IMG/VR virus record: IMGVR_UViG_2778261225_000015
Origin: a virus
Taxonomy: Duplodnaviria; Heunggongvirae; Uroviricota; Caudoviricetes
Strand: one strand, 5' to 3'
Length of the DNA: 23,768 bases
Shown: positions 14,835-23,768 of the stretch, one piece after another
Position numbering within the stretch: the stretch's first letter is position 1
How the letters are laid out: every line of letters begins with the position of its first letter
Made by a program: the position numbers and the translations under genes
The notes under the pieces: model-generated
What the model was told of the DNA's origin: nothing
The model's database searches: none
What the model saw: only the letters and a program-made list of their open reading frames with translations

Positions 14835-15521
14835 TTATTGCTTATCTTGTGGTGGTGGAACCTCTTTTTCTAAATTATCTACATACTCTCTAATATTGAA
14901 TGCTTTGTTTTTCCTTATTTCGGTAGTGTTAACCTTACTAACACCATCACGAATGTTTTTATTTATGGTGTCTATTAATTTTTGTCTTTCTTGTTCTGTT
15001 TTTATTATTTCACTTAAGAATGACTTTGCGTTTCTTGAAATGTCCGTCTGTCTATTAATGAATAGTATCGCATACACTGAAAAAACCAAGCAAGTAGTCG
15101 TTAGTGCGGAATTAAAAAATACCCCATAATAAACATTAACTTTTGTTATTGACGCTGATAACGTTAGTGATATCAAAAAAAACAAAATCAGGGTAAAAAT
15201 ATATGCAATGGTTACTTTGTTTTTAGTGGTGTCAAGAATGTATGAAGTTCTTTGATCATCAAAGTAATCCTTTATCCTTGATGGAGTGTTTGCGGGGAGT
15301 TCTAACTCCTTTATTTTATCATCAGCATCAATTAGTCGCTTAAACATGAGGCTAATGATTACGGCGCTAAAGACAGAGATCCCCTTTGAAATTATAGGAT
15401 CGAAATCAATTAAAAATGAGTATTTTGAATAAACAAAAACAATAACAAAACCACATATAAGCCCAATTACAATTGAGCTTGCTATGTTTTTTGCATATGT
15501 TTGTAACGTATTGTTTATCAT
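14835..15521 (-). CDS. Integral membrane protein, 228 aa, four predicted TM helices (2 + loop + 2) with cytoplasmic charged tail; second gene of a two-gene cargo operon
   Basis: Hydrophobic segments near residues 13-31, 47-60, 114-135 and 141-165; ATGA start/stop overlap with the upstream gene; AT-rich. Confidence 0.7.
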   Translation of the reverse strand: MINNTLQTYAKNIASSIVIGLICGFVIVFVYSKYSFLIDFDPIISKGISVFSAVIISLMFKRLIDADDKIKELELPANTPSRIKDYFDDQRTSYILDTTKNKVTIAYIFTLILFFLISLTLSASITKVNVYYGVFFNSALTTTCLVFSVYAILFINRQTDISRNAKSFLSEIIKTEQERQKLIDTINKNIRDGVSKVNTTEIRKNKAFNIREYVDNLEKEVPPPQDKQ

Positions 15522-16501
15522 GGGTTAATTACTCCGGTGTCTAGTAAGCGCAATAACCATGAAATCATTTCTTCAGCAACGTTGTCAGCAATTAGCATTC
15601 CATTGCTGTATTCAATATTAACTGAATCCTTTAGTTGAATCTCATCATTCCTGAGTATTCCTGCACCTTTTAACTCAATTGTTAAGCTTTCATCTCTATT
15701 ATCAACCAAGCCTTGTGTAATTTTACGCAACATGTCTTGCTCAGACTCGCTTGCTTTATATTTATACCCAATGGAAATATCAATTGATAGAGATTCCCTG
15801 TCAGGTGAACCATCATTTAAAATGGTATTTTTCTTCATTTCATTAATTCGATGTTCACCTACGAGCGTTTTTAATAGCTCACTAGCTGTATCATCAATAT
15901 TATTTCCATAGTAGGTTAAAGGCAGCTTTAAGCTAACATTTTTTACTATGTTACGTTTTAAAAAATCCGTATTTAGAGACAGGTTGTTTGCCTGTAAAAC
16001 GATGAAGTTATCATCAGTAATAGATAGGTTGTCTTGTAGTATGAAATTTATATAATTTTCAATATCTTTTATTCTAATAGATCTGCTTTGCAGAATTATG
16101 AAGTGGTTCTTAATCACACCAATGTATGCAATGCTTTCTAAATACTCTCTAGCATTCCCACTTGATAAATTTAATGTCTCGTATGTTAAAGCTGTTTTAG
16201 CATAATCGCTAACAGAGAAAACAGGAATGCTACTACCCGGTTCAATATAGACAATTTCCGCAAAAAACATTCCATGAATTTCTTTGCTATTTGAAAGAAC
16301 CATGTGGGCGTGAGCAGCGACATTACCATTATTATCTGGAACATCAGGGAAGAATAATCTATCAGCAACATTTGGAACCTTGATTTTCACAAGGTTTGCC
16401 AACCTATCTTGCAGGTTTGATGTTAAAAGAGCATCCTTTTTAGGAAGCATTATTGCATGGCGATAATGCAGCATTTTACTCTTATAATCTTGCGTTGCCA
16501 T
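15518..16501 (-). CDS. Uncharacterised soluble protein, 327 aa; first gene of a two-gene cargo operon at the portal/cos hotspot
   Basis: ATG 16501 preceded by AGAGGGA; no Walker A, HxH or GxSxG motif seen by eye; AT-rich codon usage unlike the phage backbone. Confidence 0.75.
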   Translation of the reverse strand: MATQDYKSKMLHYRHAIMLPKKDALLTSNLQDRLANLVKIKVPNVADRLFFPDVPDNNGNVAAHAHMVLSNSKEIHGMFFAEIVYIEPGSSIPVFSVSDYAKTALTYETLNLSSGNAREYLESIAYIGVIKNHFIILQSRSIRIKDIENYINFILQDNLSITDDNFIVLQANNLSLNTDFLKRNIVKNVSLKLPLTYYGNNIDDTASELLKTLVGEHRINEMKKNTILNDGSPDRESLSIDISIGYKYKASESEQDMLRKITQGLVDNRDESLTIELKGAGILRNDEIQLKDSVNIEYSNGMLIADNVAEEMISWLLRLLDTGVINP

Positions 16502-16572
16502 AGAATCCCTCTTGCTATGAATATGTTATACACGGAGCGAAGCAATTATGTATTGTATTGCTCTGGCGCGCA

Positions 16573-16591
16573 ATGCTATCCCCGCCACGCC
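16573..16591. other. Putative cos site (19-nt cohesive-end sequence of a 186-like phage)
   Basis: ATGCTATCCCCGCCACGCC; its reverse complement GGCGTGGCGGGGATAGCAT differs at one position from the phage 186 cohesive end as I recall it (GGCGTGGCGGGGAAAGCAT; P2 is GGCGAGGCGGGGAAAGCAC). Confidence 0.55.
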
Positions 16592-16872
16592 TGCCCGCTT
16601 TATGGGGCGGTTTTAATGCAGTTGCATGACCACTCTGGATACGCGCCAGCTGTGGCGGCACACGGCTAGAACGTGCAACCCATGTCGCATGCAAAATCAT
16701 GCGCCTGATGCATGCACAGCTAAAAAACGGGAAATTCGTGGAAAAATGGCATAAAAAACGACTTTGAAAGTGCCGGCCATGGTCAGATTTTCAAGGGCAG
16801 GCTAACGCCTCGCGCGGCTCGTTGTTCAAACCCGCTGACGCCAAAATCTAGTTTTTGCATCAGCGCGTTTAC

Positions 16873-17055
16873 CTATTCAGCCTTATAGAAAATTTCGTCT
16901 TTTTCTTCGTCGCTTTCGCTGTTAGCTAGGCCGGCAATTAGAGTTAGTGCCAGCTTCAAATCTGCCGGTTTGCAGTTGGCAATAAGAGATATCTCGGCGA
17001 TAAATTGCACACAAGCCCACTTTTGCTGCGTTCGGCTGAAATGTTTCCCAACCAT
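16873..17055 (-). CDS. Small SOS-regulated protein, 60 aa, acidic C-terminus; candidate Tum-like antirepressor (function inferred from position and regulation only)
   Basis: ATG 17055 preceded by GGGAGGG with 5-nt spacing; consensus LexA box 21 bp upstream; lies between replication gene A and cos, where 186 carries its SOS-inducible tum gene. Confidence 0.55.
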   Translation of the reverse strand: MVGKHFSRTQQKWACVQFIAEISLIANCKPADLKLALTLIAGLANSESDEEKDEIFYKAE

Positions 17056-17075
17056 GAAATCCCTCCCAATAGGAT

Positions 17076-17095
17076 TACTGTGTATTTATACAGTA
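17076..17095. promoter_or_regulatory. LexA operator (SOS box)
   Basis: TACTGTGTATTTATACAGTA fits CTGT-N8-ACAG with the flanking TA..TA of the E. coli consensus TACTGTATATATATACAGTA; immediately upstream of the RBS of ORF 16873..17055. Confidence 0.7.
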
Positions 17096-17244
17096 TAACG
17101 TATTGGCAAAAGATGGGAAGAGAAAAAGTGAATCGGGTAGGTGTTGTATGTACATGATATGGATGTAAATTAATCACCTGTGAGTTTTGATGTTTCTGCC
17201 AGCACCGCAACACGATTAAGGATTTCCCTAGGCTTTGCCTGAAG

Positions 17245-19392
17245 CTATGGCGCTGCGGAGAAAATTTCACCTTTGGACGTTCCACGCAACCATTTACCGT
17301 TAATACAACTTTTGCCACCTGCTATCAGGTGCAGGGCTTCTCCCCGGCTGATGGTAATGCCGGTTGTCAGACGGATCTCGTCGATAGTTTTTTCTATCGG
17401 AGCACTTTGCTCATCTGTTCCGTGGATAAATTTCGGCCTCTTAGGTGGCTTTGGTTTCCTGATTCGGTTCGTCAGCTCTCGCCTTTCACGTCGACTCAGG
17501 GGTTTTGATAAATCGAGTTCCGGTGGATCGCTTTCGCTTCCCGTACAGTTATTGACAGAACTCCAAGGGACGGCGAAGCCGTCCTTAACGTCAACGGCCA
17601 AATCAACGGCACGCTTCGGAACAATTTTCCATTGCGTGAGCCGGGTTAAAATCGGAGTGCCAACACCAACGGTGGAGTCGTACACACCACGAATGCAGAC
17701 AGTTTCCTCACCATACTGGTTAAACTCGGTGCGCGGTTCATAAAGCGTACGCACCTGCAAATCATCGCGACGGACAAACGGACCGCCCTGCGCATTAACA
17801 TAGCCAGCCCAATCACCGGCATCGGCGGCATCATGGACAGCCGCAAACTCAACACTTAGACCGTGCGCGGTCTCGGTATCTGCAAGGCGACGCAATTCAC
17901 GATAAACAGTCACTGGTGCACCACCGATAAACTGAAACTGACGAATATGCCAGCGCGCCGCCCATGCTGAAACGGCGGGGGCTGTCTCTTTCAACAGTTC
18001 ACCGTTTTCGTCATCGGTTTCGTCATCAAGAGCGTAACCGTCGATATTTTTCGAGATGTATTTCGCGACGTAGCCGGTTGCGCTGCCTTTCTCCGGATCA
18101 ATGGCTTCTGCGTGGAAACGTGCTTTTTTGGCTTTATCGCTTTTGAGTTCGTGAAAATCTTCTTGCCATGCGTAGTCCCGAATAATGCCACGAACGGTAT
18201 CGACGTCCTCCGGGAGCATAAACATCAGCATATGCCAGTGAGGGCACCCGTCATGGTGAGGCTCTGCAACGCGGATCCCGAAAATACGAATGTCTTCACG
18301 GTGGAGTTTTGCGCGAATGCGTGCCCACAGGCCAGTGAGATAACATTGCGTATCGGATGGATTGGATCCATTCCATTTGGTGTTACGGTAGCCTGCCTTT
18401 GTCGTGGCGTGATATTTAGACGGTGCGGTCAGGGTGTAAAACTCACCAACATAACCGAGCTCATTGCAGATATTTTCAAACCCACGAATGCGGGTCATAA
18501 GCTCACAGCGTCGAATCGCAGAGTTAGCGACTGAACCATCGTATTTTTCAATCAGGCTGATACGGTTGCCGTCTTCGTCTTCAAGCTCCAGACCTTTGAG
18601 AAATTCGCGCGTCCGGCGCTTCTGTTCACGCCAGTCTGTCACGCAGTTTTTACTCGCGTAGACATGTTTTTTCTTACTGACATTTCCGATTGCGATTTGC
18701 AGGTGTTCGCGCCACGCAGCCGCAATGCGACGCAGACGGCCACGCCACCATTTTTCCGAAAACATACGGGCAATTGCTGGAGCGACTTTATCCTGATCCC
18801 AATATTTATCCCGCGACCGTTCCCACTCTGGTGGCATTATCCTGAATTGCTGAGTGATGAAACCAGCATGCATATACCAGGCATTTAATGTCTCCAGTTC
18901 ACACATGTCAGAATCGTCAATGTTGACTAACTCTGCACGGATAAAATCGGCGATATCAGCAGCCAGCAGGTCGATGTCGGCGCGTGCCATATCCGGGAGT
19001 CGGTTGTATCTGGCGACTATGTTGACCATGCGAGACGCCAGATATTGCATAAGCTGAGTATCGAAATGACAACCGAAAACAGCGGCTGATACGTTGCTGT
19101 TAATACCGGTACACTCGTATTTTTTTGCGACCAGTTCAAAACGCGGCAATGCCTTTTTGCAGAAGCTTATTAAAAAAGCATTGGCTCGTTGACTGCCCTG
19201 ATTTTGCTCCAGCACCGCAGCAGTGCGATAAACGTCAAAACGTACACACTCGGGCTGGAGGGAAAGCACCTTTCTAGCATGCAGCAAAGCCGCGAGCATA
19301 CGGTCGCGGCGATACTGTTGGTCGTAGGTAAGATATGGACTGGCTATTGCCGACCGTGGAGCATTCCACGGAAACGCGAATTGAACAGCCAA
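17245..19392 (-). CDS. A: Replication initiation protein A (rolling-circle replication endonuclease, P2/186 gpA family)
   Basis: 715 aa, gpA-like size and position; the first codon is TTG at 19392 with GGGGGA 7 nt upstream, directly after the stop of the upstream zinc-finger gene; no in-frame ATG near the 5' end. Confidence 0.85.
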   Translation of the reverse strand: MAVQFAFPWNAPRSAIASPYLTYDQQYRRDRMLAALLHARKVLSLQPECVRFDVYRTAAVLEQNQGSQRANAFLISFCKKALPRFELVAKKYECTGINSNVSAAVFGCHFDTQLMQYLASRMVNIVARYNRLPDMARADIDLLAADIADFIRAELVNIDDSDMCELETLNAWYMHAGFITQQFRIMPPEWERSRDKYWDQDKVAPAIARMFSEKWWRGRLRRIAAAWREHLQIAIGNVSKKKHVYASKNCVTDWREQKRRTREFLKGLELEDEDGNRISLIEKYDGSVANSAIRRCELMTRIRGFENICNELGYVGEFYTLTAPSKYHATTKAGYRNTKWNGSNPSDTQCYLTGLWARIRAKLHREDIRIFGIRVAEPHHDGCPHWHMLMFMLPEDVDTVRGIIRDYAWQEDFHELKSDKAKKARFHAEAIDPEKGSATGYVAKYISKNIDGYALDDETDDENGELLKETAPAVSAWAARWHIRQFQFIGGAPVTVYRELRRLADTETAHGLSVEFAAVHDAADAGDWAGYVNAQGGPFVRRDDLQVRTLYEPRTEFNQYGEETVCIRGVYDSTVGVGTPILTRLTQWKIVPKRAVDLAVDVKDGFAVPWSSVNNCTGSESDPPELDLSKPLSRRERRELTNRIRKPKPPKRPKFIHGTDEQSAPIEKTIDEIRLTTGITISRGEALHLIAGGKSCINGKWLRGTSKGEIFSAAP

Positions 19393-21189: not shown

Positions 21190-21807
21190 ATGTCAATTTG
21201 GATTTTCGCGATAACTCGGATTTTTAAGATGAAATTGGATGAGTTAGAGGGTGGAAAAGCAGTGCTGCAGCGCATCCTTGATGCGTATGGCTTCACCATG
21301 CAAAAACAACTCGGTGACTTGCATGAGCTGTCATCGGGAACAATCAGCACTTGGGTTCGGCGTAATTTTTTCCCCGGGGATGTTGTTGTTGCATGCGCTT
21401 TGGACACTGGGGTGTCTTTACGTTGGTTGGCAACAGGGAAGGGGAACAAGTTTGATGCAGACCATACTAATGGCGAAATGAAAACATTAGACCGATTGGA
21501 TATTGTTGCAGGTAAGCTGCAGGAAAACGGTCATTGGATTGTTGATGCTAACCTCTTTTCTACTGAGGCGACGCACCCCAATTACATAGTAAAAGGCCAG
21601 CAGTCCTGGATAGTTGATTTTGATATGACTGATATAGCAAATGGGCGATGGATGCTCAGTATCGACGGGGATCATGATGTCTATGACGTTGCAAGGATCC
21701 CGGGGAACAGAATAAAAGTCAGCAACGCTGATGCCGATTTTCAATGCTCAGTTTCTGAGGTTAAGTGTATTGGCATGGTGCTGGTAAGCCTGACGAAATC
21801 TAGCTAA
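21190..21807 (+). CDS. cI: CI-type immunity repressor
   Basis: HTH-containing N-terminal domain (LQRILDAYGFTMQKQLGDLHELSSGTISTWV) plus C-terminal oligomerisation domain; immediately upstream of int on the same strand as in 186. Alternative start ATG 21229. Confidence 0.8.
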   Translation: MSIWIFAITRIFKMKLDELEGGKAVLQRILDAYGFTMQKQLGDLHELSSGTISTWVRRNFFPGDVVVACALDTGVSLRWLATGKGNKFDADHTNGEMKTLDRLDIVAGKLQENGHWIVDANLFSTEATHPNYIVKGQQSWIVDFDMTDIANGRWMLSIDGDHDVYDVARIPGNRIKVSNADADFQCSVSEVKCIGMVLVSLTKSS

Positions 21808-21811
21808 CGAT

Positions 21812-22849
21812 ATGAGTGTTAAAAAACTGACATCGGGTGAATGGCTTTGTGATTTCCGCGTCGACGGGGCTGAAAGTCGCCGCGTGCGTAAGAAGTTTTC
21901 AACCAAAGGTGAAGCCGTTGCCTTCGAGCAGTATTACCGAGAAGAGGCACAAAATAAGCCGTGGATGGGTGAGAAGGAAGACCGTCGACGTTTGAGTGAA
22001 CTGATTGAGCTGTGGCATAACCTCCATGGCCAGTCGCTCGCTGCCAGCAAATCGCGATTGGCCAAACTGCACATTGTTTGCCGGGGTCTTGGCGACCCAA
22101 TCGCTACCCAGCTTACCGCCAAAGATTTCGCCCATTATCGGGATAAACGTCTCAAGGGTGAAATCGACAATGGCTATCACGCAAATTCTGAAAAGTGGAT
22201 TGCGAAACCTGTGACTGTGAACCGGGAACAACAGTACCTCGAAGCTGTTTTCAATGAGCTGAAGCGCTTGGGTGAGTGGAGTCTGCCAAATCCTCTCGAA
22301 GGTGTGCGAGTTTTCAAAGAAGCCGAAAAAGAAATGTCTTGGCTTACCCAGCCTCAAATTCGCGAAGTGCTCAATGCTTGTGAGTCATACGGGAAAATTT
22401 ATTTAACCCGTATCGTCAAAGTGTGCTTAGCGACTGGTGCTCGATGGAGCGAGGCCGAGCGTCTTACTCGTTCACAGCTTTCACCCCACAAGTTGACTTT
22501 CACTAAAACGAAGGGAAAGAAGAATCGTACAGTACCGATCCCTCGGTGGCTATATGACGAGTTGGCTCCTTTACAGGGAAAAATGTTCCACCCCTGCTAT
22601 CAGGAGTTCAAGAAAATGCTCGCTCTGACCGATATAGAGTTAGCTGAAGGGCAAAAAACGCATGTGTTACGTCATACATTTGCGAGTCACTTTATGATGA
22701 ATGGTGGGAACATTTTAGTACTGCAACGAATCTTGGGCCATTCTAACATTAGGGAAACCATGAGATACGCTCATTTTGCACCAGATCATTTAGAAGAAGC
22801 TGTAACTCTTAACCCTATTTCTAATTTAACAGGATTATATGATGAGTGA
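21812..22849 (+). CDS. int: Tyrosine-recombinase integrase
   Basis: 345 aa; C-terminal catalytic block HVLRHTFASHFMMNGGNILVLQRILGHSNIRETMRYAHF (R..H-x-x-R...Y signature). Confidence 0.9.
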   Translation: MSVKKLTSGEWLCDFRVDGAESRRVRKKFSTKGEAVAFEQYYREEAQNKPWMGEKEDRRRLSELIELWHNLHGQSLAASKSRLAKLHIVCRGLGDPIATQLTAKDFAHYRDKRLKGEIDNGYHANSEKWIAKPVTVNREQQYLEAVFNELKRLGEWSLPNPLEGVRVFKEAEKEMSWLTQPQIREVLNACESYGKIYLTRIVKVCLATGARWSEAERLTRSQLSPHKLTFTKTKGKKNRTVPIPRWLYDELAPLQGKMFHPCYQEFKKMLALTDIELAEGQKTHVLRHTFASHFMMNGGNILVLQRILGHSNIRETMRYAHFAPDHLEEAVTLNPISNLTGLYDE

Positions 22850-23768
22850 GCCAACCATCGAAACACCTCCAAGAATGACCGAGGCCAAAGTCATTAGGGT
22901 ACGCACTCGTGGTTTTTATAATTTAGTTGAGATAGGTGCAGTCTTTCTAGTTGCAAATGTAATTTTTGCTACAGGGATATTAGACTCAACCTTTTATTAT
23001 TTATTTCCCAGTGCGAGAGCAGATCTTACACATTTGCCGAGCTTTATCAGGTCAATATTCGCAGTGTCATTTGTAATCGTTTACACCATTATCTATGGTG
23101 TGTCTCCAATCCAAAGAATGTTTATGAGAATTACAGGGAGTGATTCAGTCGACAAATCATCGATGTTTAATATTGTCGATATTATAAATGAGATAAAACT
23201 ACTCAAGAAGGCTCAAGAGGAAAGGGCTGCTGCTGATGAAGATGAATCTCTGGATTTTTATCTTAAAGGTTTGATTAATAGCTCTGAAGGTCTTGCGAAA
23301 AACATATATTCTCGCGGTAGTCTTTATTTATTAGTCGGTGTTTGTTTTGCAATAGTTGGATTAGGTTTCTTCTATTCTCAATCACATGTAATTGATGCTA
23401 AGGATGATGCGGTAACCAAGGTAATGTATCTTCTCCCTAATTTTGGCGTGTTGATTTTCTTGGAGTTAATCGCATTTTTCTTTTTGAAGCAATATCGGGT
23501 TACGATGGATGAGTTTCGCTATTACGAGGCAATAAAACGTTCACGTGAGGAAAGCTATGCCATTATAAAGCTTGTAATGGCTAGCCAGAAAGATATCGAT
23601 ATGATAGACCTTCTGGATAAAATTAATTTTAGCTCAAGAGTTGGAAAACTAGAATCAGGGCAGACTACTGAAATTATTGAAGCAAGAAAATTAGACAAAA
23701 ATGAACTTGAAACCTTAGTAAAGCTTACCGAGGCAGTTGCGGGTAAGATTGGACAGGGAAATAAGTAG
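22839..23768 (+). CDS. Integral membrane protein, 309 aa, four predicted TM helices with cytoplasmic loop and tail; cargo gene downstream of int
   Basis: AGGA upstream of tandem ATGs at 22839/22842; overlaps the int stop by 11 nt; AT-rich; stop codon is the last three bases of the window. Confidence 0.7.
   Translation: MMSEPTIETPPRMTEAKVIRVRTRGFYNLVEIGAVFLVANVIFATGILDSTFYYLFPSARADLTHLPSFIRSIFAVSFVIVYTIIYGVSPIQRMFMRITGSDSVDKSSMFNIVDIINEIKLLKKAQEERAAADEDESLDFYLKGLINSSEGLAKNIYSRGSLYLLVGVCFAIVGLGFFYSQSHVIDAKDDAVTKVMYLLPNFGVLIFLELIAFFFLKQYRVTMDEFRYYEAIKRSREESYAIIKLVMASQKDIDMIDLLDKINFSSRVGKLESGQTTEIIEARKLDKNELETLVKLTEAVAGKIGQGNK

Follow-up and report, generated by a model that had tools for sequence, protein, structure and literature searches.

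Whether DNA damage could switch on a P2-family prophage through a very small gene lying next to its cohesive end is the question raised by the locus described here. The window, i.e., the whole stretch of 23,768 nucleotides that was analysed, is a 186/PSP3-type (Eganvirus-like) P2-family prophage of E. coli, with terminase, portal, capsid, lysis and tail genes on one side of the locus and CII, CI and integrase on the other. Between the P2/186-type replication gene A (17245..19392, minus strand; Pfam Phage_GPA, E = 2e-128; phrog_91) and cos, downstream of A and on the same strand, lies tumA (16873..17055, minus strand; ATG at 17055, TAG stop at 16873-16875), which encodes a 60-aa predicted CI antirepressor. 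The reading preferred here, to which a probability of roughly 0.8 is given, is that this locus constitutes the SOS induction module of a 186/PSP3-type prophage, in which tumA would be repressed by LexA and its product would inactivate CI.

For the control region, the first-pass annotation had proposed a near-consensus LexA operator just upstream of the ORF, and this proposal was borne out. The predicted operator, or SOS box (17076..17095, minus strand), reads TACTGTATAAATACACAGTA in the direction of the gene and TACTGTGTATTTATACAGTA on the plus strand, matching the consensus TACTG(TA)5CAGTA at 18 of 20 positions, with both the CTG and the CAG arms intact. It is the only match to the consensus with three mismatches or fewer in the 23.8-kb window, and none of 100 dinucleotide-preserving shuffles of the window produced one. 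The box is separated from the tumA ATG by 20 nt, where 21 bp had been given earlier, and the strong ribosome-binding site that had been noted, a GGGAGGG Shine-Dalgarno sequence read at 17061-17067 (minus strand), is indeed placed 5 nt before the ATG. Additionally, a p95-like sigma-70 promoter was recognized at 17092..17119 (minus strand), with a -35 hexamer TTCCCA (17119-17114), a 16-nt spacer and a -10 hexamer TATACT (17097-17092) that overlaps the LexA box; this was the sole promoter-like site in a scan of 16500-17300. In phage 186, the elements that align with this promoter and this box are annotated as p95 and a LexA site. The locus thus presents a CTG-N10-CAG palindrome near the consensus and over a core promoter, the arrangement by which LexA-regulon membership is judged.

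This arrangement is shared by the whole set of loci compared, which comprised 33 tumA loci, namely 30 fetched from different species together with PSP3, phage 613R3 and the window, and which spans many Enterobacterales. Each of the 33 has, 35-43 nt ahead of the start codon, a CTG-N10-CAG box, which persists down to a TumA identity of 54%. When the upstream regions were aligned, the best-conserved columns corresponded to the box (TACTGTA...ATACAGT), which forms the most conserved block of all, and to the -35 block CTTC.CA; a GGGAGGG-like block was also kept.

Farther upstream, about 25 nt before the -35 hexamer, a motif CATATCATGTACATAC containing the palindrome ATGTACAT (17146-17161, minus strand) is conserved with 186 and PSP3, and at its position the more distant tumA loci carry other inverted repeats, such as ATATC-N5-GATAT. 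The palindrome was considered as a CI operator and dropped, being absent elsewhere in the window, including the cI-apl intergenic region, and the motif is unlike the cI-apl operator region. The element might serve to bind a regulator, or it might mark where the early operon ends.

The ORF behind this control region had been described as a 60-aa protein with an acidic tail, and its C-terminal tail, ESDEEKDEIFYKAE, is acidic as stated. A tblastn search of sequenced phages returned ten matches with 82-83% identity over the full 60 residues. Among these ten is PSP3 tumA (83% identity over 60/60 residues, E = 2e-28), annotated as "similar to 5' end 186 tum; UV induction of prophage", and a second phage match of the ten also bears the annotation 'UV induction of prophage'. 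The ORF further matches phrog_1993 (E = 3.2e-28). In a large protein database the family comprises 112 clusters, nearly all of 60-62 aa, from Escherichia, Salmonella, Klebsiella, Citrobacter, Enterobacter, Cronobacter, Kosakonia, Pantoea and other genera, several of which have already been named TumA by UniRef. The ORF is a new member of this already named family, and the minimal arrangement in which it occurs is a frequent one in nature.

In the family alignment the ends vary and the core, ACVQFIAE(V/I)SLIANCKPxDLKLALxLIADLA, is essentially invariant; this core is present in the TumA of the window. When the core was compared between the window and 31 relatives, the mean pS was 0.71 and the mean pN 0.083 (pN/pS about 0.12), with the synonymous sites near saturation; judged by these substitution patterns, tumA encodes a real protein whose core is under strong purifying selection. 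In an AlphaFold model (pLDDT 66), TumA adopts a two-helix hairpin, with helices at residues 4-26 and 30-49, followed by a tail (residues 50-60) of low confidence, so that the acidic tail is predicted to be disordered. Alignment with Tum, a check that had been suggested by the first-pass annotation, gave in addition to the close match with PSP3 TumA a weak one with 186 Tum, in which residues 15-47 of the TumA profile align with residues 13-45 of Tum (hhalign, E = 1.5e-4, probability only 52%) over 33 columns at about 29-33% identity.

On the other side of tumA, a stable hairpin of about 45 nt (16827..16871, minus strand; -22 kcal/mol) directly follows the stop codon and is accompanied by a short U run only. 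Hairpins of like shape and different, compensating sequence are found after orf97 in 186 and after tumB in PSP3. The 16827-16871 hairpin would mark a module boundary and possibly acts as a terminator; genes accessory to the SOS operon seem to be gained or lost at this conserved point. When the 191-nt stretch downstream of tumA was folded as one RNA, a z of -0.10 was obtained, and meaning is attached to the short local hairpin alone. Rfam gave no match anywhere in the window. The hairpin is followed, in this order, by a counterpart of the 186 terminator t95b and by cos. The former (16729..16784, minus strand) consists of a weak stem and T6, with a fold of only -6.8 kcal/mol, and aligns with the t95b region of 186. 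The latter, a 19-nt cohesive end (16573..16591, minus strand; reverse complement GGCGTGGCGGGGATAGCAT), is located 281 nt downstream of the tumA stop, in agreement with the earlier statement that the ORF lies next to cos; 18 of its 19 positions are shared with the annotated cos of 186, as are the next 12 nt. The final 246 bp of the 186 genome align with 16592-16835 at about 85% identity, and this right-end homology stops at 16592.

A DinI-like gene was sought downstream of tumA with a profile built from five DinI-like proteins, and none was found within 3 kb. Across the family loci such a gene is present in 12 of 33 and absent in 21 of 33, and in seven of them (the window, L016, L020, L024, L026, L030 and L032) cos is reached in about 190-560 nt without any DinI-like gene. 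Since it is absent in 21 of the 33 family loci, the DinI-like tumB is an accessory and not a defining component. From the comparison of these loci, the constant core of the 186-type SOS operon is the LexA box plus tumA, the rest, including the DinI-like gene, being accessory.

The presumed target of TumA is the product of cI (21190..21807, plus strand), a 186-family immunity repressor recognized by its match to the structure of 186 CI (PDB 2fjr, E = 4e-23). Its ten best matches among sequenced phages (47-50% identity) belong to exactly the ten TumA-bearing phages, whereas the other 186-type CIs among sequenced phages are at or below about 35% identity. The two domains of the repressor behave differently. 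Over the 24 TumA loci covered by the CI comparison, the N-terminal HTH domain (residues 20-86 of the window CI) is 66-91% identical to that of the window in 23 loci, with the outlier L035 at 42%, whereas the C-terminal domain is 33-67% identical, with L035 at 25%. Similarly, in an alignment of 26 TumA-type CIs (22 of the loci, without L035 and with L036 counted apart, plus PSP3 and the window), a conservation of at least 95% is reached by 33 of 67 columns in the N-terminal HTH domain, versus 14 of 104 in the C-terminal domain. In phages with other Tum types, the CI N-terminal domains are 37% (186) and 42% (DuoHS of E. coli HS) identical to that of the window.

Because an almost invariant TumA must recognize a conserved surface, these patterns suggest that TumA would contact the N-terminal HTH domain of CI. 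TumA identity was not significantly correlated with identity of the CI N-terminal domain (rho 0.33, p 0.11) or of the CI C-terminal domain (rho -0.20), so the argument draws on levels of conservation rather than on covariation. As a separate observation, most CIs of TumA-bearing prophages, including PSP3 CI (286 aa; L005:1198-2058), contain two tandem HTH domains, and the CIs of the window, L016, L020 and L036 (about 192-210 aa) contain a single one, the retained domain being the highly conserved one.

The mechanism proposed for this locus can be outlined as follows. In the lysogen, a LexA dimer would occupy the SOS box over the -10 and start region of the p95-type promoter, keeping tumA silent. 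Upon DNA damage, activated RecA would promote self-cleavage of LexA and the promoter would fire. The 60-residue TumA would then accumulate, bind the 186-family CI and reversibly block its binding to the operator, releasing the lytic promoter. As the module has no DinI-like partner, nothing phage-encoded would modulate the RecA filament. Here, LexA binding, the TumA-CI interaction and productive induction are inferred from the work on 186 Tum and from the annotation of PSP3. Published papers support this mechanism by analogy and by homology of the module. In these, 186 Tum is stated to bind CI and to prevent its operator binding (PMC3121763), a p95-tum module is used to render a CI-controlled switch UV-inducible (PMC7708051), and in the P2-like prophage of E. 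coli HS the deletion of tum, or a non-cleavable lexA, is shown to abolish induction by mitomycin C (PMC12055606). According to PMC3121763, 186 Tum is composed of an antirepressor half and a DinI-like half, which PSP3 and Fels-2 split, the antirepressor activity of PSP3 residing in the upstream small gene; this last point is a personal communication of G. E. Christie via Bunny et al. 2002. The function assigned to PSP3 TumA thus comes from a database note together with a personal communication cited second-hand. Taken together, the TumA family membership, the p95-like promoter with its LexA box and the 186-family CI favor the earlier suggestion of a small SOS-controlled antirepressor in the position of 186 tum. 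That suggestion had also left open a minimal or a different antirepressor; given the split Tum of PSP3 and Fels-2, "minimal" describes the protein well, and "different" does not hold.

The alternative that survives best, which is nevertheless unlikely, is that the module is intact and SOS-regulated in a defective prophage, so that tumA would be turned on without phage being produced, as a relic or a domesticated switch. It draws on gene A, in which the TAG at 17245-17247 (minus strand) replaces a Ser codon of the PSP3 and 613R3 A genes with the loss of 24 C-terminal residues, and which was called a pseudogene with an internal stop by PGAP in the 99.9% identical locus of E. coli FORC 064; given this call, productive induction is not assured. 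It is further compatible with BTP5, a related Salmonella prophage that expresses tum and for which no infectious phage was detected (PMC7067206), and with an unusual residue in TumA itself. Within the near-invariant LIADLA motif, position 42 is Gly in the lineage of the window TumA (including clusters P0001 and P0002), whereas it is Asp or Glu in the 32 other loci. Gly42 may represent an adaptation to a single-HTH CI or a weakening of TumA; the latter could count against the mechanism as well. However, phage 186 is viable with an A protein that, owing to a frame change, stops about 45 residues earlier, so the tail of A appears dispensable and the truncation is probably tolerated and harmless; that the 'internal stop' in gene A had by itself killed the prophage was judged unlikely on the same ground. 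Moreover, every other structural and regulatory gene seen in the window has an open reading frame, and of 5,426 complete E. coli genomes, 13, from food, animal and human isolates, have preserved the 2.6-kb locus around tumA with 99.9% identity.

A second alternative, less probable than the first, is that TumA is controlled by LexA and is not a CI antirepressor, acting instead on the RecA filament, on cell division or on superinfection exclusion, with induction proceeding via another factor. The antirepressor role of TumA proteins is assigned by inference, TumA had no match in Pfam, NCBIfam or PADLOC scans, and a PDB sequence search with its profile gave none either, all of which leaves room for such a role. 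The 186 SOS operon also includes genes with roles other than induction, since its annotation states that the nested DinI-like Tum products 'modulate SOS induction' and that orf97 'blocks 186 infection'. Against this, the weak alignment of TumA with 186 Tum falls on the N-terminal part outside the DinI-like half, a part found in the one tum product whose annotation mentions inhibition of CI. Furthermore, tumA is the one constant gene of the operon, while tumB and orf97-like genes come and go, TumA is found only alongside one clade of CI repressors, and the literature (PMC3121763) assigns antirepression to the upstream small gene. Finally, a chance palindrome beside a spurious short ORF, suggested by the shortness of the ORF and its want of a Pfam or NCBIfam family, has a negligible probability and is already refuted by the comparative data, given the 0/100 shuffles with a box, the joint conservation of box and ORF in 33/33 loci, the strong purifying selection on the core and the 112 clusters of constant length.

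Beyond the preferred reading of a LexA-repressed tumA whose product inactivates CI, a more far-reaching version can be put forward only tentatively, its probability being well below one half. TumA might be a self-sufficient 60-residue antirepressor, functioning without a DinI-like partner, that occludes the conserved N-terminal HTH throughout one clade of 186-type CIs, in the form of a helical hairpin whose acidic tail may mimic DNA. Since the TumA core and the HTH are nearly constant while the CI C-terminal domains differ widely, one TumA could then induce in trans other P2-like prophages with divergent CIs. If true, this would amount to TumA cross-talk between P2-like prophages, like that of the Gifsy antirepressors.

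The region on the far side of cos was also inspected. Between cos (16573) and the end of the portal gene (14778), an insert of 1.7 kb (14835-16501, minus strand) carries two overlapping genes with a G+C content of 30-34%, versus 52-58% in the neighbouring phage genes. The first (15518..16501, minus strand) encodes a 327-aa protein of phrog_3482, a rare family of 17 clusters, which had no Pfam or PADLOC match. In lambdoid phages, its distant homologues occupy the rexA-rexB position, directly behind cI and ahead of a small membrane protein, and one of these homologues is labelled 'DefenseFinder protein'. The AlphaFold model of the 327-aa protein (pLDDT 67, pTM 0.63) has lambda RexA (8twq) as its sole significant PDB fold match (Foldseek, E = 5e-5, probability 1.00, TM 0.38-0.43); BLASTP between the 327-aa protein and lambda RexA was not significant, the link being one of fold comparison only. 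The second gene (14835..15521, minus strand) encodes 228 aa with about four hydrophobic, membrane-like segments, as judged from its sequence. On the basis of the model and of this gene order, 14835-16501 is probably a RexAB-like exclusion module next to cos. As the cargo lies downstream of the SOS promoter and on the same strand, read-through from this promoter into it is conceivable. At the edge of the prophage, a 309-aa ORF (22839-23768, plus strand) annotated as hypothetical overlaps the end of the integrase gene by 11 nt; it gave only an insignificant PADLOC match (Cas5a, E = 0.0015) and may likewise represent cargo. The neighbours of the prophage in FORC 064 are yfiB and dgcN.

The proposed mechanism predicts that quinolones, mitomycin C and UV would switch this prophage on through LexA and not through cleavage of its repressor, and such a damage-induced switch would matter for how the prophage and its RexA-like cargo spread. 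Two modest points are added to what was known of these modules. The first is that the small tumA and its LexA box form the constant core, with the DinI-like gene optional (missing from 21 of the 33 species-level loci). The second is that TumA is accompanied by CIs in which the DNA-binding domain is conserved and the oligomerisation domain varies, which suggests the site at which the antirepressor would act.

Among known systems, the closest is PSP3 (GenBank AY135486; TumA, AAN08399, phrog_1993), whose TumA likewise has 60 aa and is encoded between gene A and cos, behind a LexA box (TACTGTATAAATATACAGTA) at the same distance from the start codon and a GGGAGGG ribosome-binding site, and is partnered with a CI of the same clade. 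The differences lie downstream and in the repressor. In PSP3, tumA is followed by the DinI-like tumB, orf37 and orf38, tumB starting 4 nt after tumA there and in 613R3, with further ORFs behind it, whereas in the window tumA is followed by the boundary hairpin and cos. In addition, PSP3 CI has 286 aa and a duplicated HTH, whereas the CI of the window (about 192-205 aa) has a single HTH and a C-terminal domain only about 35% identical to that of PSP3, and residue 42 of TumA is Asp in PSP3 and Gly in the window.

The Tum of phage 186 resembles TumA in its genomic position, in a promoter and LexA operator that are homologous at the DNA level, and in having a 186-type CI as target, a presumed one in the case of TumA. 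Its N-terminal 45 residues share with TumA the motif hydrophobic-x-x-I-A ... C ... D ... (L/I)AL.LIA(D/E)(L/I)A, the Cys and the (L/I)AL.LIA(D/E)(L/I)A segment being common to both in the profile alignment. However, 186 Tum has 146 aa, with a fused DinI-like C-terminal domain and nested shorter products, and is encoded in an operon with orf97, none of which is found in the window, where the TumA polypeptide ends at residue 60.

A working precedent for a Tum of roughly 60 aa is provided by DuoHS, the P2-like prophage of E. coli HS. Its tum was located as ECHS_RS04495, which encodes a stand-alone protein of 62 aa and has a LexA box upstream and a separate DinI-like gene downstream. As in the window, a small stand-alone protein is thus encoded after gene A behind a LexA box, but DuoHS Tum is not significantly similar to TumA (hhalign E = 0.08), and the DinI-like gene that follows it has no counterpart behind tumA in the window. 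Finally, the same logic of a LexA-repressed small antirepressor that binds a non-cleavable repressor is followed by GfoA and GftA of the Gifsy prophages and by AntC of N15 (PMC3121763). The Gifsy proteins differ in that they act on unrelated repressors of the gfoR/gtgR type and in that their operons are reversed, with dinI first (PMC3121763).
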